This document shows, piece by piece, positions 971-54,743 of a stretch of DNA of 64,000 nt (positions within the stretch are counted from its first letter, which is position 1; every line of letters begins with the position of its first letter). Location: NCBI RefSeq assembly GCF_044647545.1, contig NZ_CP172818.1, one strand, 5' to 3'. The notes below the pieces were generated by a model. It searched no databases and had not been told where the DNA came from. It saw only the letters and a list, made by a program, of their open reading frames with translations. This DNA is from Escherichia coli. GTDB taxonomy: Bacteria; Pseudomonadota; Gammaproteobacteria; Enterobacterales; Enterobacteriaceae. Position numbers and translations under genes: made by a program.

Positions 971-1007
971 GGCCTTTCTTATGGCTGGAAAGGCCTGATT
1001 TGTTTGT
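971..1007 (+). terminator. Stem-loop plus T-tract after yfjJ
   Basis: GGCCTTTC...GAAAGGCC stem followed by TGATTTGTTTG, directly 3' of the yfjJ stop. Confidence 0.5.
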
Positions 1008-1129
1008 ATTAAGATATCGGTAATCTTTTGATGGTTGGAAGCCCGTCCTGGTAGACGACCTAGCCTACCGAAGATGTGAGTTATTCAAAAATGTCGCTTT
1101 CCCGCGTTCCGTAGACAAACGTACCTAAA

Positions 1130-3319
1130 TCAATGTCGTCTAATACCGAGCGCGCGCCTGATAAACATCTGATCAACGTACCCAATCGATCTACTCCAAA
1201 TGTCCTGAGTATCCCGAAGATACTGGCTCAACTCATCCACATCAGCCTCGTCGGAAAATTCCAGCAAGTCTACCAGTCGGTGTAACGTCTGAATGGGAAT
1301 GCCAATCTCTTCTAAGGCATTGACACCTGGTGGTAGATGGAAACTTTCGAACGCCAATTTGACATGTGTGTAATCGACTTTGCTGCGTATACCACGCTTT
1401 ACAGCGTGGTGTTTAACTACATCCTCCATCAAGCTGAGCACCTTAGGTAGGGTATAGCCGAAGGTATTGGTTATGAGCTTCAAATCATTGTTGAGGGCAA
1501 TGGAAAGAGTACGTTTCTCCCCTTCAGAAATCCACTGTCGTGCATAATCGATCTGATTTTTCAGATATTCCGAATAACTTTCAGCACTTAAATAGCCGGC
1601 AAGTTTTGCGATCATGACATCCGTAGGCTTAACAGGGACCCCATTGCGACTGAACGTATGGGGAACCAGTCTGGCAATGATCTTTGCAAAGGTCTTGAGG
1701 AAGTTTGTCGCGGGAGTCCAGTGAAACACTAACGAGGAAAATTCGTTATCGTCCATCATCTCGAACATGCTTTGCAGCATTTCGAACTGCTCGACACGGA
1801 AGTACGAATGCTTCTTCACAAGGTCGATGGAAACACGGTCGTTTATGAAAACCTCATCAAAGCGATCCTGTGAAAACTCGGACAAGTGGTCTGGTTGAAC
1901 GCTGGCTAACAGGTTGATTGGGGTATCAATGCCCTGAATACCGAGCGGAATATCCACCTCTTGATTGAGATTGTCTTCCGGGATTTCCTCCAGGCAAAAG
2001 ATTTTGCCGACGAAGTGAACGCCCATGCGCCCGGCGCGACCTTTGATGTTCCCATGGGTGAATTTGTCAATGCTGCGAGTTCCATCGCGGTTGTCGTAGA
2101 TCACAACGTTCTTAGCGATAGTGTTGACTCCTTCAATGATCGTGGAGGTGCAGAGCAAAAAGCGCAGTTTTCCAGCATTGAATTGGTCGGCAGTGTATTG
2201 CTGCAGTGCCCTCGGTAGCGCGCCAAAATGCAAGCCAATACCGTTTCTAAGGGCGACTGTGTAATCCCAGTCGGCATCGAACTCTTCGCTGACCCAGTCG
2301 ACATGGGGATTCTCAGTCGGAGTGCCATGCCCAAGCCTGATCAGCTCGCGCGCCACCAGGCCCGCAACAGTTGGTGACTTGCAATAAATGATCGTTGCGT
2401 CGACACATGCGTGCGCGATTTCCCCCAGCGCTTTGAGCTTGGCTTTGTCGTCATTCGCTTTGATGCCGAACGTCTTAACATCTAGCGCGACTGTATTGAA
2501 GTCGGTAGAAACGAAAGTATGCGGATATCCAAGTTTTTCGAGACCGCGAATGCTGTTAACGAACGGTCCCGTCAGGTAAAACTGCCTGGAGACCTTAAGC
2601 AGTTTGCTTAACGCAATGTTGAGCTCGATGACTCGTTCGTCTTGATGATCAATGTCCCCGCTTTTCAGTTGTCGGAACGCCAACTTGTAAAACTCGTCAA
2701 TGACGAAGAGGTCAATGTCGACGATGTCGTCACGCTCGTTCACTCGCTCCTGAGTTAACACATAAACAGCCTGATCGGAATGGCACACTTGGGAACTGTG
2801 GTGGATGATCTGATATCGGTCACCGAATCGCTCTTGCAGTCGGCGACGGGTTTCGTCGGCAAGAGCCACGGTTGGAACAACCAGAACAAGCCGTTTCAAA
2901 GTTCCCATGCCGAGCAATGAATCGACGATTGCACTTTTGCCCATGCTTGTAGGTGCACTCAGCACCACGTTTTGACCAGACTTGAGCAGATCGAATATGT
3001 GGAACTGCATTGAGTGGAAAACATAACCATCCGAGAATGGCGTCCGGTATAGCTCAAGCACCCTCAGGTCATCCGGTGTCAGGCTGGTGAACTCCTTTTT
3101 GAGATACGGGAACAAACCTGATTTTCTCACCATATTTTTCAAAATTGTGGTGTGCTCGGAAAACCGCTCGCGCGAATCGAGAGCTCGCACGATCAAGTCC
3201 CGTCCCAAGTCATACGAAACAGGGTTAGACAACAGCTTGTTAACCGCAAACAGATAATTGAACGATGAGAAGTCCTCACCCTGCAGGCTATGTTTCGCCT
3301 GTTCATAGATCTCTGTCAT
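1130..3319 (-). CDS. yfjK: SF2 DEAD/DEAH-box helicase, 729 aa (probable AbpB)
   Basis: 729-aa ORF; Walker A APTSMGKS, DExx-like VIDEF, helicase C-terminal motifs TSTIIEGVN and GRAGRMG visible in the translation; overlaps upstream yfjL by 4 bp. Confidence 0.85.
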   Translation of the reverse strand: MTEIYEQAKHSLQGEDFSSFNYLFAVNKLLSNPVSYDLGRDLIVRALDSRERFSEHTTILKNMVRKSGLFPYLKKEFTSLTPDDLRVLELYRTPFSDGYVFHSMQFHIFDLLKSGQNVVLSAPTSMGKSAIVDSLLGMGTLKRLVLVVPTVALADETRRRLQERFGDRYQIIHHSSQVCHSDQAVYVLTQERVNERDDIVDIDLFVIDEFYKLAFRQLKSGDIDHQDERVIELNIALSKLLKVSRQFYLTGPFVNSIRGLEKLGYPHTFVSTDFNTVALDVKTFGIKANDDKAKLKALGEIAHACVDATIIYCKSPTVAGLVARELIRLGHGTPTENPHVDWVSEEFDADWDYTVALRNGIGLHFGALPRALQQYTADQFNAGKLRFLLCTSTIIEGVNTIAKNVVIYDNRDGTRSIDKFTHGNIKGRAGRMGVHFVGKIFCLEEIPEDNLNQEVDIPLGIQGIDTPINLLASVQPDHLSEFSQDRFDEVFINDRVSIDLVKKHSYFRVEQFEMLQSMFEMMDDNEFSSLVFHWTPATNFLKTFAKIIARLVPHTFSRNGVPVKPTDVMIAKLAGYLSAESYSEYLKNQIDYARQWISEGEKRTLSIALNNDLKLITNTFGYTLPKVLSLMEDVVKHHAVKRGIRSKVDYTHVKLAFESFHLPPGVNALEEIGIPIQTLHRLVDLLEFSDEADVDELSQYLRDTQDIWSRSIGYVDQMFIRRALGIRRH

Positions 3320-4932
3320 ACGACCTCTCTCACCTTCTCATCAACTAATTGGGTTAACCGCTCAAGACTCGGGGCTGGATAAATGAATACGTGGATGCAA
3401 AGATTCGCAAACGGCGAATCCTCGATGAGGTCAGCCGCGAATTTTTCGAACAGCACCGCTGTTTCTTTCTCCAGGTCATCCTCGAACCCCGGCGTTTCAG
3501 GCTCGGTTAGTAGATTAGAGTCGTAGCCCACGAACAGAACAAACGTGAAACGATCGAGGTGAGCATCGAAAGGTTGGCTGCCATCAAGAATTTCGTCAAT
3601 GTCGTGGCGAAGCAGGTAGTTATCGTCTTTAATGTCGAGGATTTTTTTGCGCGCGGTATCGATGCAATCCGAAATGTCCTCGTACAACTGATCCCGTATC
3701 TCCGGCAATCTGACGGCAATGTTAATATCAGTCACCAACTCGCTGAAGCCAATCCAAAGCTGATCACCTTCTGGATCGCGGCGAACGATATGCACGTTTT
3801 CAAGAATTTTTTCGGCCCCTGCTTTTTCCACGTATAGCATGCAAGGAATAGGCTGGCTTTCGTGGTGCTGCCGGATCGTTGCGTGCAACAGCACTCGACC
3901 CAAAAATTCGCTGACGTCATGGAGCGATTTGAAGACGGAATTCTTTAGTCGTTCTCGCTTTTCAATGAATGTCAGTTTATGAATATCAGACATTTCTTTT
4001 GGTCGGAGAAAAACCTCATCCAACCATTGACAGACGTTATCCGCGATGTGCTTGTAGCGGTATTTCTTAAGTGAGTACTGCTGATGTAGAACCTGGCCTT
4101 TACGCTTAGCGCAGACCGAAGCCATAGGCGCTCTAAATGGCGTAAGGATGTGGGGTAAGTCCCGTTTGACGTAGATTTTGCGGCCTGACCGAGATTGGTC
4201 ATCTTCGACACGCTGCTTGAACCACTCAAGTAGGTCTGGTCGTAAGTAGGACTTGTCATCAGCACTGTGAATGCGTCGAGAATGCTCGCCCTTGCGCGTC
4301 ACAGTATCAAGGATGCGGCACCAAATGTCTTCGGCGACGGTTTCGGAACTGAGAATGACCCCATGTAGATCTTGGGAGGCCAGCCGTATGTTCTTGATCC
4401 CTAGAAGTTCCAGTTCGCGCAGGGATGAAAACACTTCCCATGTAGCCGCATCGATCCAATCTGAAACGCTTATACCTGAGTCTGTTAAAAAATTGTCTGT
4501 GCGTTTGTTGAGGTCATCGATGAGTTCCTGTCGACCTGGCTTATCTAGTCGGGCGTTTGGGCTGATCGTCAAGTACTCAAGGGTTTTGTTGACCTTTTCC
4601 TCTGTGACGATGGAGTACCTACGTCCAAGGGACAGGTCAGACTCACACTGCATTGATTTGTGCAAAATTGAACTGCAGGGGATCGTCTTTTTATCAGCAC
4701 CTTTTGAATTCTGAACGATGTCCGAAATGTTCCAACGTGTTTTGCCGGTGCTTTTTACCTGAACGAAGTCGATGTATCCATCAGATACAATGTCGATATC
4801 GTCTGTGACCTCGCAGCGCACACTGCGGATAGTCTTGTCACGAAGCATTCGGGTGACATGGTAAGCGGCTACGCAGTCCTGAAATAAGAAACCGTGCTTG
4901 GCGGCTACTCCGCCTGAATCGTTCGACTCCAT
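3316..4932 (-). CDS. yfjL: Helicase-partner protein, 538 aa (probable AbpA)
   Basis: 538-aa ORF whose stop overlaps the yfjK start (3316-3319), indicating translational coupling; length and sequence match my recollection of YfjL. Confidence 0.8.
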   Translation of the reverse strand: MESNDSGGVAAKHGFLFQDCVAAYHVTRMLRDKTIRSVRCEVTDDIDIVSDGYIDFVQVKSTGKTRWNISDIVQNSKGADKKTIPCSSILHKSMQCESDLSLGRRYSIVTEEKVNKTLEYLTISPNARLDKPGRQELIDDLNKRTDNFLTDSGISVSDWIDAATWEVFSSLRELELLGIKNIRLASQDLHGVILSSETVAEDIWCRILDTVTRKGEHSRRIHSADDKSYLRPDLLEWFKQRVEDDQSRSGRKIYVKRDLPHILTPFRAPMASVCAKRKGQVLHQQYSLKKYRYKHIADNVCQWLDEVFLRPKEMSDIHKLTFIEKRERLKNSVFKSLHDVSEFLGRVLLHATIRQHHESQPIPCMLYVEKAGAEKILENVHIVRRDPEGDQLWIGFSELVTDINIAVRLPEIRDQLYEDISDCIDTARKKILDIKDDNYLLRHDIDEILDGSQPFDAHLDRFTFVLFVGYDSNLLTEPETPGFEDDLEKETAVLFEKFAADLIEDSPFANLCIHVFIYPAPSLERLTQLVDEKVREVV

Positions 4933-5190
4933 TTAGACATCCGTGACAATTTTGCGAAAATTAAGGAGATGTTATGACACAGTCCAATCGGATCACTGCA
5001 TCATCACCAGTGATCTAAATACTTCACAGCCATTCTCGGTCGCAGGTATCAAGCTTTTCAGGATTCCACAAATATTGTAACCCTGACGTCTAATTTGGTT
5101 ATATAACATACTGCCCCAACTAACGTAAGGTAGGCACAGCCTTAATCAAGGTTTTGGTTTTCAAATAGTTCAGAGCTGAGACCGCCAACC

Positions 5191-5238
5191 GCACTATGGC
5201 ACTATGGCACTATGGCACTATGGCACTATGGCACTATG
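5191..5238. repeat. Tandem repeat (GCACTATG) x6
   Basis: Six perfect head-to-tail copies of an 8-bp unit read directly, between yfjM and the yfjL upstream region. Confidence 0.95.
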
Positions 5239-5291
5239 GCACCGCCAGCGATTGTAATCACACTTGATATTATAAAACACAGTTGCACGCA

Positions 5292-5555
5292 TTATTTCCT
5301 GGTTGGTAGGGTCATATCTCGATGCTCTTTGAGCAATGTCAACATCGCGTGTTCATGGCTTTCTATATTGTTGATGCCTTGCCCATCCGGACCCCACTCC
5401 TTATAGCTCATCATGATGGCTTGTTTTGGGCTCTCTGCTCGTTCTGTTTCGACGTAGAATTTTTTCTTGTCTGCTGGCGAATAATTACTAAGTATCGAGT
5501 TGCTGCTTGGTGAGATCAGGAAGAGGTTACCGAAACGATGGACATCATCCCCCAT
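5292..5555 (-). CDS. yfjM: Small prophage protein, 87 aa
   Basis: 87-aa ORF in the expected position between yfjL and rnlA; length matches YfjM; coding status not independently supported. Confidence 0.5.
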
Positions 5556-5696
5556 TTTGTGGACTGCCCCCCCGGTAGACGATCCTGCCCTATAGTTGGA
5601 GTGCCCCCTATTCAGGTGGCTAAATTTAGCAAATCAATACACTTCAGGGGGGTATTATTGTAGAGTTTCCCCATATGTTTCTATGGGATCCAGGAA

Positions 5697-6770
5697 ATGA
5701 CAATCAGGAGTTACAAAAACTTAAATCTGGTCAGGGCAAATATCGAGACTGAATCCAGACAATTCATTGAAAATAAAAACTATTCAATCCAATCAATTGG
5801 TCCTATGCCAGGGTCAAGGGCTGGGCTTCGGGTCGTATTTACCAGACCAGGGGTTAACTTGGCAACTGTGGACATTTTTTATAACGGGGACGGTTCGACT
5901 ACAATTCAATATCTCACTGGAGCCAATCGTTCTCTGGGCCAAGAGTTAGCGGATCATCTTTTTGAAACCATCAATCCTGCTGAATTTGAGCAGGTAAATA
6001 TGGTACTGCAAGGATTTGTAGAGACAAGCGTTCTACCTGTACTTGAGCTATCAGCAGATGAATCGCATATAGAGTTCAGAGAACACTCTCGTAACGCTCA
6101 TACCGTAGTGTGGAAAATTATTTCCACCAGCTATCAGGACGAATTGACTGTGAGCCTGCATATCACAACAGGTAAGCTCCAGATTCAGGGCCGACCGCTG
6201 TCATGTTACAGAGTTTTCACGTTTAACTTGGCAGCCCTGCTTGATTTACAGGGTTTGGAGAAAGTGCTAATCCGCCAGGAGGATGGTAAAGCTAATATTG
6301 TTCAACAGGAGGTTGCCCGCACTTACTTGCAGACTGTAATGGCCGATGCTTACCCGCATCTCCACGTGACTGCCGAAAAATTGCTCGTTTCAGGGCTATG
6401 TGTTAAACTCGCCGCCCCTGATTTGCCTGACTACTGTATGTTACTTTATCCTGAACTACGCACCATTGAAGGTGTCTTAAAAAGTAAGATGAGTGGGTTA
6501 GGCATGCCAGTACAGCAGCCGGCAGGTTTTGGAACTTACTTTGATAAACCTGCTGCTCATTACATTCTGAAACCGCAATTTGCAGCTACTCTTAGACCGG
6601 AACAGATTAACATCATCAGCACAGCCTATACTTTTTTTAATGTGGAACGTCATTCTCTGTTCCACATGGAAACTGTGGTCGATGCCAGCCGTATGATTTC
6701 TGATATGGCCCGGTTGATGGGTAAAGCCACTAGAGCGTGGGGAATAATCAAGGACTTATATATTGTTTGA
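5697..6770 (+). CDS. rnlA: RnlA toxin (RNase LS), 357 aa
   Basis: 357-aa ORF recognised as RnlA; followed by an overlapping small antitoxin gene. Confidence 0.9.
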   Translation: MTIRSYKNLNLVRANIETESRQFIENKNYSIQSIGPMPGSRAGLRVVFTRPGVNLATVDIFYNGDGSTTIQYLTGANRSLGQELADHLFETINPAEFEQVNMVLQGFVETSVLPVLELSADESHIEFREHSRNAHTVVWKIISTSYQDELTVSLHITTGKLQIQGRPLSCYRVFTFNLAALLDLQGLEKVLIRQEDGKANIVQQEVARTYLQTVMADAYPHLHVTAEKLLVSGLCVKLAAPDLPDYCMLLYPELRTIEGVLKSKMSGLGMPVQQPAGFGTYFDKPAAHYILKPQFAATLRPEQINIISTAYTFFNVERHSLFHMETVVDASRMISDMARLMGKATRAWGIIKDLYIV

Positions 6771-7134
6771 AATCACCGGAATTAACGTCTCAGGGGCTCT
6801 AAAAGCTGTCGTTATGGCGACCGGCTTCGAGAACCCTTTGTCCTCAGTTAATGAAATTGAGACGAAACTTTCTGCCCTACTGGGTAGTGAGACCACTGGT
6901 GAAATCCTTTTTGACCTCTTGTGCGCTAACGGTCCAGAGTGGAACCGCTTCGTTACGCTGGAAATGAAATATGGCCGGATCATGCTGGATACGGCCAAAA
7001 TTATTGATGAGCAGGACGTTCCGACACATATCCTGAGCAAACTGACTTTTACTTTACGTAATCATCCTGAGTACCTAGAAGCCTCTGTTTTGTCTCCCGA
7101 TGATGTACGCCAAGTCCTGTCAATGGATTTTTGA
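6763..7134 (+). CDS. rnlB: RnlB antitoxin, 123 aa
   Basis: 123-aa ORF overlapping the rnlA 3' end by 8 bp, the typical type II toxin-antitoxin arrangement. Confidence 0.85.
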   Translation: MFEITGINVSGALKAVVMATGFENPLSSVNEIETKLSALLGSETTGEILFDLLCANGPEWNRFVTLEMKYGRIMLDTAKIIDEQDVPTHILSKLTFTLRNHPEYLEASVLSPDDVRQVLSMDF

Positions 7135-7435
7135 AACTCTTCTTTCTAAACGAACCAGTATAGAATTCGCCCTTTTGGCATGATATTAACTTGTCCAATA
7201 TGATCAAATAGCATTAACCCCCCCTCACAACGTCCTGCATAGGGAACACGTTTTCCCCTGTGCACCCACGACTAAATTTCCCCCCCTTTAAACTTCTCAA
7301 TAATGTCACCAATTTTCTGGAAATCCTATGATGCCTTTCCCGGTAAATGGTGCTGTGAGTTCAGAAAGATTCTGCAATCTATGTGCATTGAAAAAATCTT
7401 CAGATAGATATCATTCTCCTGAACAATCCGATGAA

Positions 7436-7470
7436 CGGCAGAACCTCGCGGTTCTGCCGTTTTTGTTTTA
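7436..7470 (+). terminator. Terminator-like hairpin in the yfjP leader
   Basis: CGGCAGAAC...GTTCTGCCG stem followed by TTTTTGTTTTA, about 20 nt upstream of the yfjP RBS; a diverged copy recurs at 15269-15300. Confidence 0.5.
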
Positions 7471-7488
7471 CTTTTCAGAGGAGTGGTG

Positions 7489-8352
7489 ATGAAAAATTTT
7501 GAAGTTCTGCAGCCACTACAGAACTCCCTTTCCGGTCTACCGCTATGGGTATCTGAACGTATATTGCAGCAGATAAATCAGTTAACCCACTACGAGCCAG
7601 TGATCGGCATCATGGGTAAAACTGGGGCGGGAAAGAGTAGCCTTTGCAATGCCCTGTTTGCCGGTGAAGTATCGCCGGTCAGCGATGTAGCGGCCTGTAC
7701 ACGTGATCCTTTACGCTTTCGCCTGCAGATTGGAGAACACTTTATGACCATCGTGGATCTGCCCGGCGTGGGCGAAAGTGGCGTTCGCGATACCGAGTAT
7801 GCTGCGCTGTACCGCGAACAACTTCCCCGGCTCGACCTGATTCTGTGGCTGATTAAGGCTGATGATCGGGCACTGGCGACTGATGAGCATTTTTACCGTC
7901 AGGTGATTGGCGAAGCATACCGGCATAAGATGCTGTTTGTTATCAGCCAGTCAGACAAAGCTGAACCCACCAGCGGTGGAAATATCCTTTCCACAGAGCA
8001 GAAACAAAATATCAGCCGCAAAATCTGCCTGCTGCATGAGCTATTCCAGCCCGTGCATCCGGTGTGTGCCGTGTCGGTTCGCCTGCAGTGGGGACTAAGG
8101 GTGATGGCAGAGCGGATGATTAAGTGTCTGCCGCGTGAGGCCAGCAGCCCGGTAGTAGCGCTACTGCAACATCCCTTTCGAACAACGGTAGCCCGGGAGC
8201 AGGCACGTGACGATTTCGGTGAAACCGTAGGTGCCATACTCGATACGGTAAGCACCTTTCCCCTTATTCCCGCCCCGGTGCGGACCATTATTCAGGCCGT
8301 GCGTTCCTCGGTGGTGTCAGTGGCCCGCGCTGTCTGGGATTTCTTCTTCTGA
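7489..8352 (+). CDS. yfjP: Prophage GTPase, 287 aa
   Basis: G1/Walker A GKTGAGKSS and G3 DLPGVG motifs; ATG at 7489 preceded by GAGGAG (the listed ORF begins 6 nt earlier at an in-frame GTG). Confidence 0.85.
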   Translation: MKNFEVLQPLQNSLSGLPLWVSERILQQINQLTHYEPVIGIMGKTGAGKSSLCNALFAGEVSPVSDVAACTRDPLRFRLQIGEHFMTIVDLPGVGESGVRDTEYAALYREQLPRLDLILWLIKADDRALATDEHFYRQVIGEAYRHKMLFVISQSDKAEPTSGGNILSTEQKQNISRKICLLHELFQPVHPVCAVSVRLQWGLRVMAERMIKCLPREASSPVVALLQHPFRTTVAREQARDDFGETVGAILDTVSTFPLIPAPVRTIIQAVRSSVVSVARAVWDFFF

Positions 8353-8443
8353 GTGTTTAATTCTGCCCTATTATTCTCCGAGCCCTGTCGCAAGTGCGGC
8401 AGGGCTTTCTTTATTTGTTTTACCCATACTGAGGAGTCTGCTT

Positions 8444-9263
8444 ATGACCCGTCTGGCTTCGCGCTTTGGCGCTGCAAACCAGATACGCCGTGACCGTCCG
8501 CTGACACATGAAGAACTGATACGCCATGTACCCAGTATTTTTGGGGAAGACCGGCACATCCCGCAGTGAACGGTATGCGTACATTCCCACCATTACCGTC
8601 CTGGAAAATCTGCAGCGGGAAGGCTTTCAGCCGTTCTTCGCCTGCCAGACCCGTGTGCGCGACCCGGGCCGCCGGGGATACACAAAACACATGCTGCGTC
8701 TGCGGCGGGCCGGAGAGATAAACGGAGAACATGTCCCTGAAATTATTCTGCTCAACTCTCATGACGGTACCTCCAGCTACCAGATGCTGCCGGGTTACTT
8801 CAGGTTCGTCTGCCAGAACGGGTGCGTCTGTGGCCAGTCTCTGGGGGAAGTGCGTGTTCCACACCGGGGAAATGTAGTGGAGAAAGTTATCGAAGGGGCT
8901 TACGAGGTGGTGGGCGTGTTTGACCGGATAGAGGAGAAGCGTGATGCCATGCAGTCGCTGGTCCTGCCGCCACCGGCACGCCAGGCGCTGGCACAGGCGG
9001 CACTGACTTACCGTTATGGTGACGAACATCAGCCCGTCACCACCGCCGACATTCTGACGCCGCGACGCCGGGAGGATTACGGTAAGGACCTGTGGAGCGC
9101 ATATCAGACCATCCAGGAGAATATGCTGAAAGGCGGGATTTCCGGTCGCAGTGCCAGAGGAAAACGTATCCATACCCGGGCCATTCACAGCATTGATACC
9201 GACATTAAGCTCAATCGCGCATTGTGGGTGATGGCAGAAACACTGCTCACGCAACTGCAGTAG
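8444..9263 (+). pseudogene. yfjQ: DUF932-family protein, frameshifted near codon 41
   Basis: ATG at 8444 with GAGGAG RBS encodes MTRLASRFGAAN... for 41 codons, then TGA at 8567-8569; the remaining 245 aa continues in the +1 frame; total span 820 nt is not a multiple of 3. Confidence 0.65.
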
Positions 9264-9479
9264 ACGTTTCATGTTGCCACGTTGTTAATATCGGACACCA
9301 CCTGTCCGCATCGCTATGTGCTCGTGTGCCTCAATCCCCCGGTTATAGCTTTTAACCCCCGTTACATCTGGCTTTTGCAGAAATAAAAAATAGTTTCTGC
9401 GTTGTCCATACCCTGTCCGCCCCCCTCTTTAAAGTAATCACATCATTTTCAGTCAGTTAACTTTCCTGGAGAATCTCTC

Positions 9480-10181
9480 ATGACACAGGCAGAACGCCGC
9501 CATGACCGGCTGGCTGTCAGGCTGTCACTGATAATCAGCCGTCTGGTTGCGGGTGAAACGTTGAGCGTGCGCAAACTGGCGGCTGAGTTTGGCGTGTCAG
9601 TGCGCACGCTGCGGCGTGATTTTCGTGAACGACTGATGTATCTGGACCTGGAGTATCAGTCCGGATACTGCCGCTTACGCACTGCTGGCAGTGAGATGCA
9701 GATGGTGCCCGACGTGCTTATCTTTGCCCACCGCAGCGGGCTGGCCGGGCTTTTTCCCGGCCTTGACCGCCGTCTGGTGAATGCACTGCTGATGTGCGAT
9801 GAGTCTCCCTGCGTGATAGCACCAGCCAATCCGGTTCCTTCGCCTTCAGGAGCATTGTCTTTCTGGAGACTGATTCAGGCCATTACCGGGCGCAGGCGGG
9901 TGACGCTGATTGCAGAGGGGCGACGCTGTGAGCGCCTAGCTCCCTGCCGGTTACTCATCCACCAGCAGACCTGGTATCTGGTGGCTGAACACGAAGGGCA
10001 TATCGCCGTATTCACACTTGATGAAATCCATCTGATTCAGCCTTTGCAGGAGACTTTTCGCCGCAATGACAGTCTGTGTCGCCTGGTTGAAGACCCGGTC
10101 TTCATTCAGGCCTTACCCCATTTTCGCTTTATCCAGCATTCACTGCTTACGTTTGTTCCGGCCGACAGCCCACCGGAATAG
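9480..10181 (+). CDS. yfjR: HTH plus WYL-domain transcriptional regulator, 233 aa
   Basis: N-terminal HTH-like segment ([21 protein letters not shown]) and a WYL motif ([11 protein letters not shown]) visible in the translation. Confidence 0.85.
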
Positions 10182-13094: not shown

Positions 13095-14798
13095 ATGGCT
13101 TTTGTATCAGAAAGAGAAATTGTAAGAAAGATATTTAGCAAAAAAATTGACTTTACGATCTTGGCATTTTTCTATATTTCCTCTATTTTTTTTCTTCTTT
13201 GTAGTGGCGTTCTCTTTCAATATTTTACCGCTGCCTTCACAAAAGGTAATTGTTATGAATGCTCAATGAAACTTGATTACATAAAACAATTTTATTTTTC
13301 ACTGGAAACCGCATGGTACCTCATATCTGCTGTTGCAGTATTTATTGCATCTGTTTTTATACAGCATAGAATTAAAGCTTATTTAACATTATTAGCTATT
13401 ACATGGATTGTACTAACAATAACAGATGTGGCGTTAATACACGCCTTAGACAATATAGCCATGAATAATATTTTGTTAAATATACTATATAATCTTTTTG
13501 GGGCGATTTTATTGTCACTGTTTATGTGTTTATCAAATTCCCTCCTTTTCCACCTTAATAAGATAAAACATATTCCAATGATTTTATCGGCAATGATTCC
13601 ATTAGTTTCCGCAATAATAATAGCCATACTCATAACCGCTGTTATATATTTATTGTTTGCCCGGCAGGCGGTAGAGATTGAGATGGATATATCTGAAGGT
13701 TCAGACATCGCATATGTAGGTGTAAAAGATAATGAGGAATCATTTGGGTTTTTAAATGATAAAAAAACAGACACACCAACGTATCTGGATGTAATCAAAA
13801 ATGGTAGTTTGATATATAATGATACACAGGGTTTAAGTGGTGCTGATATTTATATTGTCTCCGGTTGTTATGCCCTTCCAGATTTACTTCGCAATGTACC
13901 GCTTGATGCTAAAAAATCTTTTCTGAATGTAAAAAAGCTAGAAATCACACAGAAACTTCCAATGATGGGGTTCATACAAGGTGAATCCGCTGATGTGATG
14001 CCTAAAGCAGCATCCAGGTTAAGTTTGAGCAAGCAAGATGATAAATTTATGCTAGCCTCAAGTGTTACTGACTCTCAAATAAAATTTAAATCAAACAATG
14101 CACAATTGATGGTTGCTTTCGCATTTATGCCAATAACAACGAATGGTATTTTACATGATTATACATACGATATAATAATAAATGATAAAAAATATAAAAT
14201 TGAAAATCATGTTGCACCTCTATCTAGGCTTGATAAAAATAAGAAGATGAAGTGTGAATACCAGCAAATATCGGATTTAACAAATACGTATAACATTAAT
14301 GCAAATTACTTAACGGGTTTTTTACTTGTCCTAAAACCAGATGATATTATTAATTACAACAATAGCCCTTCCGTACTACTCAAGACTGATTTTGCGTTCT
14401 ATAAAAAAACATACCAGAAGCTTGATAAAATATATGATGACATAAGCAATGGAAAATTATCTTCACTGAGAGCAACAGGTATCTCCCAGTTTAGTATCAA
14501 CGGGAAACATTTGTCGTTAAGGCCAGAATCGGAGATTATTATTTCTGAAGGGAGTTTGTATGGACTAGTTAATAAAAGCAAAAAAATCAAAATATATGGC
14601 ACAGCAGATCTTGTTTTTGTTGATAACAAGATAATGAACCTTCGTAAAATAACTTATTTGCAATCTAAGCTAGAAATTTTTGGTTCTTCTATTATGGATA
14701 TATTAAAGTATATATTTGGTTTAGGTCTGCTAGCAATTTCTATAAAATTCATTCATTCTTACTTTAAGAATGATGTGAATGAAAATTTATTCTTGTAA
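13095..14798 (+). CDS. yfjW: AT-rich inner-membrane protein, 567 aa, function unknown
   Basis: 567-aa ORF; strongly hydrophobic N-terminal about 190 aa followed by a hydrophilic Asn/Lys-rich domain; very low GC. Confidence 0.75.
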   Translation: MAFVSEREIVRKIFSKKIDFTILAFFYISSIFFLLCSGVLFQYFTAAFTKGNCYECSMKLDYIKQFYFSLETAWYLISAVAVFIASVFIQHRIKAYLTLLAITWIVLTITDVALIHALDNIAMNNILLNILYNLFGAILLSLFMCLSNSLLFHLNKIKHIPMILSAMIPLVSAIIIAILITAVIYLLFARQAVEIEMDISEGSDIAYVGVKDNEESFGFLNDKKTDTPTYLDVIKNGSLIYNDTQGLSGADIYIVSGCYALPDLLRNVPLDAKKSFLNVKKLEITQKLPMMGFIQGESADVMPKAASRLSLSKQDDKFMLASSVTDSQIKFKSNNAQLMVAFAFMPITTNGILHDYTYDIIINDKKYKIENHVAPLSRLDKNKKMKCEYQQISDLTNTYNINANYLTGFLLVLKPDDIINYNNSPSVLLKTDFAFYKKTYQKLDKIYDDISNGKLSSLRATGISQFSINGKHLSLRPESEIIISEGSLYGLVNKSKKIKIYGTADLVFVDNKIMNLRKITYLQSKLEIFGSSIMDILKYIFGLGLLAISIKFIHSYFKNDVNENLFL

Positions 14799-47990: not shown

Positions 47991-48060
47991 TTATTCGGGC
48001 GGATAAGGCGTTTTTGCCTCATCCGCCGCTCTGTACACAATGCCTGATGCGACGCTGGTG
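47991..48060. repeat. REP-like palindromic elements after proX
   Basis: GGCGGATAAGGCG...GCCTCATCCGCC-type units. Confidence 0.5.
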
Positions 48061-48178
48061 CGTCTTATCATACCTACAAACCACACCGCACATTTCAACA
48101 ATCTATCTTTCATCCCATATTCATCAACATCCGCTATTATTGATTTCCAGCTTAATCATCACCTGATGAACAAAAATA

Positions 48179-54671: not shown

Positions 54672-54743
54672 GAAAGACGCGCATTTGTTATCATCATCCC
54701 TGAATTCAGAGATGAAATTTTGGCCACTCACGAGTGGCCTTTT
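54672..54743 (+). ncRNA. micA: MicA (SraD) small regulatory RNA
   Basis: GAAAGACGCGCATTTGTTATCATCATCCCTGAATTCAGAGATGAAATTTTGGCCACTCACGAGTGGCCTTTTT between luxS and gshA, ending in a terminator hairpin. Confidence 0.85.

Follow-up and report, generated by a model that had tools for sequence, protein, structure and literature searches.

The gene pair abpA (yfjL, hamA) and abpB (yfjK, hamB) lies in a 64,000-nucleotide stretch of Escherichia coli DNA (NCBI RefSeq assembly GCF_044647545.1, contig NZ_CP172818.1), which is referred to here, at its full length, as the window. The pair is almost beyond doubt the characterised AbpAB (YfjL/YfjK) phage-defence operon of E. coli K-12, a Hachiman-type system that is already known and whose structure and mechanism have been published. 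All 538 residues of AbpA are identical (100%) to residues 28-565 of chain A of the PDB entry 8ZUE ("Anti-bacteriophage protein A"), as are all 729 residues of AbpB to chain B of the same entry ("Anti-bacteriophage protein B"), and because of this identity, together with the RefSeq names abpA and abpB, the pair is assigned to AbpAB and is not new. The entry 8ZUE is presumably the 3.1 Å structure of Cui et al. 2025. When positions 1000-5700 of the window were searched by megablast, E. coli K-12 MG1655 and its derivatives matched at 100% identity, the corresponding genes there being annotated as abpB, abpA, yfjM and rnlA; the window and the AbpAB locus of K-12 have the same DNA, the same proteins, the same position beside rnlAB in CP4-57 and the same 4-nt overlap, with no difference between them.

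The original prediction, made from the letters of the window, had described the pair as probably AbpAB and not new, and had asked for an alignment to AbpA and AbpB; the identity to both chains of 8ZUE is firmer than what it had claimed. The 4-bp overlap between the stop of a 538-amino-acid (aa) yfjL and the start of a 729-aa yfjK, the position beside RnlAB in a prophage-like island (here CP4-57, with yfjM between abpA and the adjoining rnlAB), and the APTSMGKS motif in yfjK were all recovered. Its term "helicase pair" holds for AbpB, a superfamily 2 (SF2) helicase, and fails for AbpA, which in the Pfam and PADLOC matches is a nuclease with no helicase domain. The date of 2023 given for the description of the system has to be moved back to 2014 (Yasui et al., Genes Genet Syst 89:51), the paper of 2023 (PMC10732053) being a follow-up on the triggers. 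All the proposed checks have already been published, namely the comparison with AbpAB, plaque assays with T-even and many other phages, and the Walker A mutant K128A (PMC10732053, PMC11914072). Hachiman, the current classification of the pair, had not been recognised. The outcome is a settled identity and a corrected earlier description, with no new system.

Operon layout and domain composition of AbpA and AbpB

The identity and domain composition of the genes, the presence of their catalytic residues, the lost DUF1837 motif and the arrangement as an operon were determined here directly. On the minus strand, the junction between the two genes reads ...GAGAGAGGTCGTATGACAGAG, where the TGA stop of abpA and the ATG start of abpB have ATGA in common, and a purine-rich, Shine-Dalgarno-like GAGAGAGG is located 5-12 nt ahead of the abpB ATG. 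Overlaps of ATGA are commonplace between genes of an operon and unremarkable in themselves; judged from this sequence, translational coupling of abpA and abpB through the overlap is plausible. The 4-nt overlap is also stated in PMC10732053 (Fig. 1A) and PMC11914072, and it is likewise kept in the copy of the pair on the Enterobacter asburiae plasmid pAR0468_1, which has 93% DNA identity. The open reading frames on the plus strand within abpA and abpB were all of 147 aa or less and were taken as antisense noise.

AbpA matched the PADLOC model HamA1 from end to end (E=2.8e-266) and contains an N-terminal Cap4-type double-stranded DNA (dsDNA) endonuclease domain followed by a HamA/DUF1837 domain; its N-terminus also matched the LmuA/DUF4297 models of PADLOC, less strongly (E down to 5.8e-14). 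The D45A, Q58A and K60A mutants of AbpA, which change the Cap4 catalytic triad, have lost defence and DNA cleavage (PMC10732053, PMC11914072). In the DUF1837 domain, the short HamAs (about 261-311 aa) carry GFDxVH...LWLGEAKFY, a D...ExK signature of the PD-(D/E)xK type, and AbpA has ILENVH...LWIGFSELV. An exhaustive HMMER search with AbpA residues 254-538 produced 87 representative homologues, and in an alignment of 72 sequences the Cap4 D-Q-K residues were kept in 36 of 36 long-form homologues (500-574 aa), while the D-E-K residues of DUF1837 were kept in none of these 36 and in most of the complete short forms. The DUF1837 domain of AbpA is catalytically dead, and the active nuclease is the Cap4 domain. 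This result reproduces the statements that the HamA-like domain of AbpA is catalytically inactive (PMC12278908) and that the HamA proteins of types I-B/C/D have lost the catalytic motif (PMC11914072). Truncation of DUF1837 has been reported to abolish AbpB binding in pull-down assays (PMC11914072).

The short HamAs were found by the exhaustive representative search, a word-indexed search with AbpA's C-terminal domain having produced close relatives and fragments only. The equivalence of the DUF1837 positions to E138/K140 of the HamA from E. coli ECOR31 (PDB chain 8VX9_A) rests on the motif shared with the short HamAs and on published structural statements, because no direct alignment to 8VX9_A was obtained. 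In NCBIfam, AbpA had no model and AbpB had only helicase matches far below threshold. One hit of 7162 aa with 15 matched stretches (P0046) was rejected as a giant multi-DUF1837 protein and the match was taken as compositional; the first residues of the protein form a charged unit of low complexity, KEAADSVSESVDEVVRDAKEAAEA..., which is seen again from about residue 167.

AbpB matched the PADLOC model HamB1 from end to end (E=4.2e-220) and has the Pfam domains DEAD (104-210) and Helicase_C (365-433). It is the only helicase of the pair, an SF2/Ski2-like sensor and motor subunit. Within helicase motif I (Walker A), the single mutant K128A and the triple mutant G127A/K128A/S129A have lost defence, and the triple mutant has no ATPase activity either (PMC10732053, PMC11914072). 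After 8ZUE_B, the closest solved relatives by sequence are SF2 helicases of the Pol theta/Hel308/Ski2 type, as well as the ECOR31 HamB (8VX9_B), which matched with E=1e-7 over one motif block.

Mechanism and relation to Hachiman type I

Published work on identical proteins is the source for how the complex forms, for its ATPase, helicase and nuclease activities, for its triggers and for abortive infection. The first description of AbpAB, by Yasui et al. 2014 (PMC12278908 and PMC13064477 both cite it), showed, as summarised in PMC10732053, that many dsDNA phages are blocked when AbpA and AbpB are co-expressed, that the two proteins interact and that a mutation in T4 gene 41 escapes AbpAB. Defence has been observed against T-even phages, phiX174, T1 and others (PMC10732053, PMC11914072). 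Sasaki et al. 2023 showed that AbpAB blocks phiX174 as well as the lysogenisation and induction of Sp5, and does not block the RNA phage Qbeta; they described abortive infection, with defence lost in each of the mutants Q58A, K60A, K128A, D208A and E209A, of which K128A, D208A and E209A are in AbpB (PMC10732053). In the same study, AbpAB toxicity was set off by T4 Gp32 able to bind single-stranded DNA (ssDNA), and also by mitomycin C, norfloxacin, bleomycin or the deletion of recB or recC, independently of RecA and LexA (PMC10732053). Cui et al. 2025 resolved the K-12 complex by cryo-electron microscopy (cryo-EM) at 3.1 Å as a 1:1 heterodimer in which DUF1837 attaches to the TPR-like N-terminal domain of AbpB, with the Cap4 domain touching RecA1 (PMC11914072). 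The ATPase was stimulated by 52-bp dsDNA and, in the complex, rose about ten-fold. Unwinding of DNA was seen with the complex only, and so was its degradation (dsDNA, ssDNA, plasmid, phage and host DNA, with Mg, Co or Zn), which was lost with D45A or K60A (PMC11914072). A 2025 preprint describes AbpAB homologues that form 1:1 complexes with NTPase-dependent cleavage.

The best explanation of AbpAB function, held with high confidence, follows from these data. AbpA and AbpB form a 1:1 complex, the dead DUF1837 domain docking on the helical (TPR-like) N-terminal domain of AbpB. On its own, AbpA does not cut DNA, nor does AbpB on its own unwind it. Within the complex, AbpB hydrolyses ATP under stimulation by DNA, which drives unwinding and licenses the metal-dependent Cap4 domain (D45/Q58/K60) to degrade DNA indiscriminately, whether phage, plasmid or host. 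The system is silent in cells until replication or repair intermediates arise, and the complex is presumably switched on by a DNA-protein structure; its triggering stops growth, and the infected cell dies before phage release (abortive infection). The phages RB32 and RB69 may carry factors that inhibit the complex.

The pair fits Hachiman type I as defined in PADLOC/DefenseFinder, since a HamA protein with DUF1837 (PF08878) is present and an adjacent, co-oriented HamB SF2 helicase follows it with a 4-bp overlap. It does not fit type I-A, for which a catalytic DUF1837 of the PD-(D/E)xK type is expected and where AbpA has E378/F396/E398 against the D/E/K of short HamAs, and it does have the features of type I-B as given by Cui et al. 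2025, an intact N-terminal Cap4 triad and an inactive fused DUF1837. Cui et al. 2025 class AbpAB as Hachiman subtype I-B (PMC11914072), Tuck et al. propose it as a Hachiman variant (PMC12278908), and the BASEL paper lists it among the bona fide defences of K-12 as "Hachiman type I... also known as AbpBA". AbpAB is one of the few defence systems native to E. coli K-12 and the reference example of type I-B, in which a dead nuclease domain has been turned into an adaptor that lets the helicase control a different, fused nuclease; this too is already published, including the cryo-EM structure.

In canonical Hachiman, as described by Tuck et al. 2024, DNA damage is sensed by a heterodimer of the nuclease HamA and the helicase HamB (PMC12278908). 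Like the type I-A HamAB of E. coli ECOR31 (PDB 8VX9), AbpAB is a two-gene operon for a DUF1837 protein and an SF2/Ski2-like helicase, forms a 1:1 heterodimer through the helical N-terminal domain of the helicase, and has a DNA-damage trigger, non-specific DNA degradation and abortive infection; for type I-A, loss of host nucleoid DNA was seen by Tuck et al. (PMC12278908). The two differ in the nuclease, as DUF1837 itself cuts in type I-A (E138/K140) and the fused Cap4 domain cuts in AbpA, whose DUF1837 is dead, and in the helicase, the ECOR31 HamB having 1174 aa against 729 aa in AbpB, which lacks the WH and OB-fold domains according to Cui et al. (PMC11914072).

Two other known systems have partial resemblance to AbpAB. 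With the CBASS Cap4 effector (PF14130 + SAVED), the N-terminal part of AbpA has in common the restriction-endonuclease-like fold and the positions of the metal-binding triad (PMC10732053); however, AbpA has no SAVED domain in Pfam, its nuclease is licensed by a helicase partner without cyclic-oligonucleotide signalling, and no CD-NTase was found among the neighbours yfjJ, abpB, yfjM and rnlAB. With Lamassu, the likeness is in the match of the N-terminal nuclease to LmuA and in a nuclease that both systems restrain by a DNA-sensing ATPase; however, the partner of AbpA is an SF2 helicase and not an SMC/Rad50-like LmuB/C, and the DUF1837 adaptor is Hachiman-specific. Lamassu was rejected for the lack of an SMC-like partner, the one LmuB-named model that matched AbpA having done so via the DUF4297 nuclease region only (E=1e-3).

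Several points weigh against reading the pair as a working Hachiman-type defence operon. Sasaki et al. 2023 called AbpAB "not a direct equivalent" of Hachiman, on the grounds of the additional Cap4 domain and of an identity of ~16% with the reference HamA/HamB (PMC10732053), and in the searches made here the ECOR31 HamA chain (8VX9_A) was not reached from the AbpA single sequence or from a 21-sequence profile, even at E<=1. The ATPase trigger differs, being 3' ssDNA ends in type I-A and short dsDNA in AbpAB. In addition, chromosomal AbpAB leaves the plating efficiency of T4 unchanged and lowers the burst size by only about 10%, the strong defence being obtained from plasmids (PMC10732053). The relationship of AbpAB to Hachiman has since been settled by profile matches, structure and function, though the sequence distance is real.

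Upstream region and alternative readings

A first alternative is that the operon, in its native single copy in K-12, is mostly silent, being left over from a truncated defence cassette, and gives little phage resistance. On the Enterobacter plasmid pAR0468_1, two intact DUF262 (GmrSD-like) genes precede abpA, and yfjM corresponds to the second of them, being 95% identical to residues 555-641 (the last 87) of the 641-aa DUF262/GmrSD-like protein encoded upstream of abpA. In its sequence, yfjM is a 3' remnant of a GmrSD-like (DUF262) gene, and it is probably outside the working AbpAB system. The DNA homology between K-12 and pAR0468_1 is a single block from window position 5560 to 1115, which ends at the apparent start of yfjM; therefore, the K-12 cassette, in the order DUF262-DUF262-abpA-abpB, is truncated at its 5' end and joined to rnlAB.

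A consensus promoter/terminator scan gave fewer sites than shuffled sequence did. Between yfjM and abpA it detected nothing on the minus strand that was convincing as a sigma-70 site, the sole promoter-like site of this strand being at 5683-5654, upstream of yfjM. The K-12-type locus (at least 99% identity) was found in 362 of 5,426 complete E. coli genomes, those listed being overwhelmingly K-12-lineage or laboratory strains, as nearly all of the 362 appear to be. These observations favour a silent remnant. However, both open reading frames are intact and identical to proteins active in vitro, and the operon under its native promoter on the low-copy plasmid pACYC184 gives 10- to 10,000-fold protection in MG1655 delta-hamAB (PMC11914072). 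A silent remnant is considered unlikely, and it bears on the expression level and not on the identity of the system as AbpAB.

The region ahead of abpA also has two repeats. The inverted repeat has been kept in the copy on the Enterobacter plasmid and may act as an operator or form an RNA hairpin. The 8-bp tandem repeat has 6 copies in the window, 10 in strain MB06021 (record L002), 7 in TUM1509 (record L004) and, on the Enterobacter plasmid, about 3.5 that are degenerate, its copy number varying among otherwise identical K-12-type genomes. As far as checked, the yfjM remnant and the variable 8-bp repeat are new. It may be speculated, as a distinctly improbable proposal, that abpAB of K-12 is the surviving half of a four-gene cassette (two DUF262 genes and abpA-abpB), whose expression is set by the rearranged upstream region with its 8-bp repeat and palindrome. 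If true, this would account for the weak phenotype of the chromosomal operon and point to a functional coupling, undescribed so far, between a type IV restriction enzyme and Hachiman.

A second alternative concerns the outcome of activation, which could be the direct and selective destruction of replicating phage DNA with survival of the cell, in place of abortive infection with degradation of self DNA. It would agree with the reduced lysogenisation of Sp5 without lower lytic plating of this phage (PMC10732053) and with normal culture growth at low multiplicity of infection (PMC10732053, PMC11914072). However, cultures collapse prematurely at high multiplicity of infection with T4 and TP041 (PMC10732053, PMC11914072), Gp32 alone or DNA-damaging drugs without phage cause growth arrest with viable counts below 1% (PMC10732053), and genomic DNA of E. 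coli is degraded by the purified complex no less readily than that of phage (PMC11914072). Selective destruction therefore has little chance of being correct, and abortive infection by indiscriminate DNA degradation is the preferred reading.

That AbpB is an RNA helicase, and that the system senses or acts on RNA, is highly improbable. In an AlphaFold model, AbpB is similar to DEAD-box RNA helicases such as DDX19B (PMC10732053), and the RNA helicases Ski2/Mtr4 are among its PDB sequence matches; however, the best of these after 8ZUE_B are DNA helicases of the Pol theta/Hel308 type, 52-bp dsDNA stimulates the ATPase but 21-nt single-stranded RNA does not (PMC11914072), the AbpAB complex unwinds DNA duplexes and degrades DNA (PMC11914072), and the RNA phage Qbeta is not restricted (PMC10732053). 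The reading in the title of the original prediction, in which both genes encode helicases, is refuted by the PADLOC and Pfam matches of AbpA, which are to nuclease-type families only (Cap4_nuclease, HamA/DUF1837 and LmuA/DUF4297), with no helicase or P-loop family among them.

Distribution, genomic context and other features of the window

Outside E. coli, copies with 96.7% protein identity were found on large plasmids of Enterobacter asburiae and Citrobacter freundii, and distant long-form homologues (23-31% identity) on plasmids of Salinivibrio, Roseomonas and Rhizobium. An AbpA-like gene followed by a co-oriented DEAD/DEAH helicase was present on the Enterobacter, Rhizobium and Roseomonas plasmids, with identities as low as 23%; on the Salinivibrio plasmid, no gene was listed in the stretch downstream of the AbpA homologue. 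Among 50,697 phage records there was a single weak match. Eight plasmid matches at 80-90% were rejected as diverged plasmid copies of abpAB and correspond to an IS3-like fragment, a 62-bp stretch at about 5230-5291, from the 8-bp repeat to the yfjM stop, with 87% identity to an annotated IS3-like ISEc16 transposase on E. coli plasmids. In a plasmid record of Bacillus thuringiensis CT-43 (HM037272.1, 36163-36750; hit H18), a fragment annotated as hypothetical has 95% identity to AbpA residues 343-538, which suggests contamination or a chimeric assembly because the identity to the enterobacterial gene is so high.

The annotated gene order around the locus is ssrA, intA, yfjH, alpA, yfjI, yfjJ, abpB, abpA, yfjM, rnlAB, yfjP..., and because of this surrounding annotation the locus is placed in the cryptic prophage CP4-57. 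The coordinates of the features discussed are given in Table 1.

Table 1. Features of the abpAB locus in the window and of its counterpart on plasmid pAR0468_1 (record L005)
Feature	Coordinates	Strand	Remarks
abpB (yfjK, hamB)	1130..3319	-	729 aa; RefSeq abpB, WP_000136402.1
Helicase motif II (Walker B), AbpB residues 208-211, DEFY	2687..2698	-	
Helicase motif I (Walker A), AbpB residues 122-129, APTSMGKS	2933..2956	-	G127-K128-S129
abpA (yfjL, hamA)	3316..4932	-	538 aa; RefSeq abpA, WP_000445380.1
ATGA overlap of abpA stop and abpB start	3316..3319	-	Read from sequence
HamA/DUF1837 domain (PF08878), AbpA residues 294-519	3376..4053	-	Pfam E=5.9e-41
AbpA E378, F396, E398	3739..3801	-	At the D...ExK columns of short HamAs; alignment
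Cap4-type dsDNA endonuclease domain (PF14130), AbpA residues 6-215	4288..4917	-	Pfam E=3.1e-54
Cap4 catalytic triad codons D45, Q58, K60	4753..4800	-	Residues read from translation
Upstream region of abpA	4933..5291	-	359 bp; presumed promoter/leader
Perfect inverted repeat GATCACTG-N9-CAGTGATC	4991-5015		59-83 nt upstream of abpA ATG
Perfect 8-bp tandem repeat GCACTATG x6	5191-5238		Between yfjM stop and abpA start
yfjM	5292..5555	-	87 aa; between abpA and rnlAB
rnlA	5697..6770	+	
rnlB	6763..7134	+	
pAR0468_1, intact DUF262 gene	3740-5665 (L005)		641 aa; directly upstream of abpA
pAR0468_1, abpA	6001-7617 (L005)		
pAR0468_1, helicase	7614-9803 (L005)		

Three other genes of the window were noted. 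The YfjP GTPase (7483-8352, +), just downstream of rnlAB in the same island, resembles in PADLOC, though weakly, LeoBC (E=3e-6) and LeoA (E=1e-3), which are dynamin-like candidate defence proteins. YfjR (9480-10181, +) matched a WYL-domain regulator model of PADLOC for CRISPR-associated signalling (E=5e-34) and is possibly a regulator within the island. The gene yfjW (13095-14798, +; 567 aa, RefSeq "protein YfjW") lies in a sharply AT-rich patch with a GC content of about 0.32-0.33 against about 0.5 around it, and had no PADLOC match.

The remaining window is ordinary K-12 chromosome, with ypjA, gabDTP, nrdHIEF, proVWX, emrRAB, luxS and gshA up to the arg/ser tRNA cluster. The tRNA genes (57650-58244, -) include four in a tandem array with a 140-bp period and a fifth, annotated in RefSeq as four tRNA-Arg and one tRNA-Ser. 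The small RNA MicA was found at 54672-54743 (+), and a naRNA4 match just above threshold (60 vs 59.5 bits) at 47997-48074 (+); these, like the tRNA array, are ordinary K-12 features. An imperfect 12/24-bp tandem repeat, GGATCCGGAGTC..., is located at 18864-18927, within the ypjA autotransporter adhesin gene (1565-aa open reading frame, 17924..22621, -).

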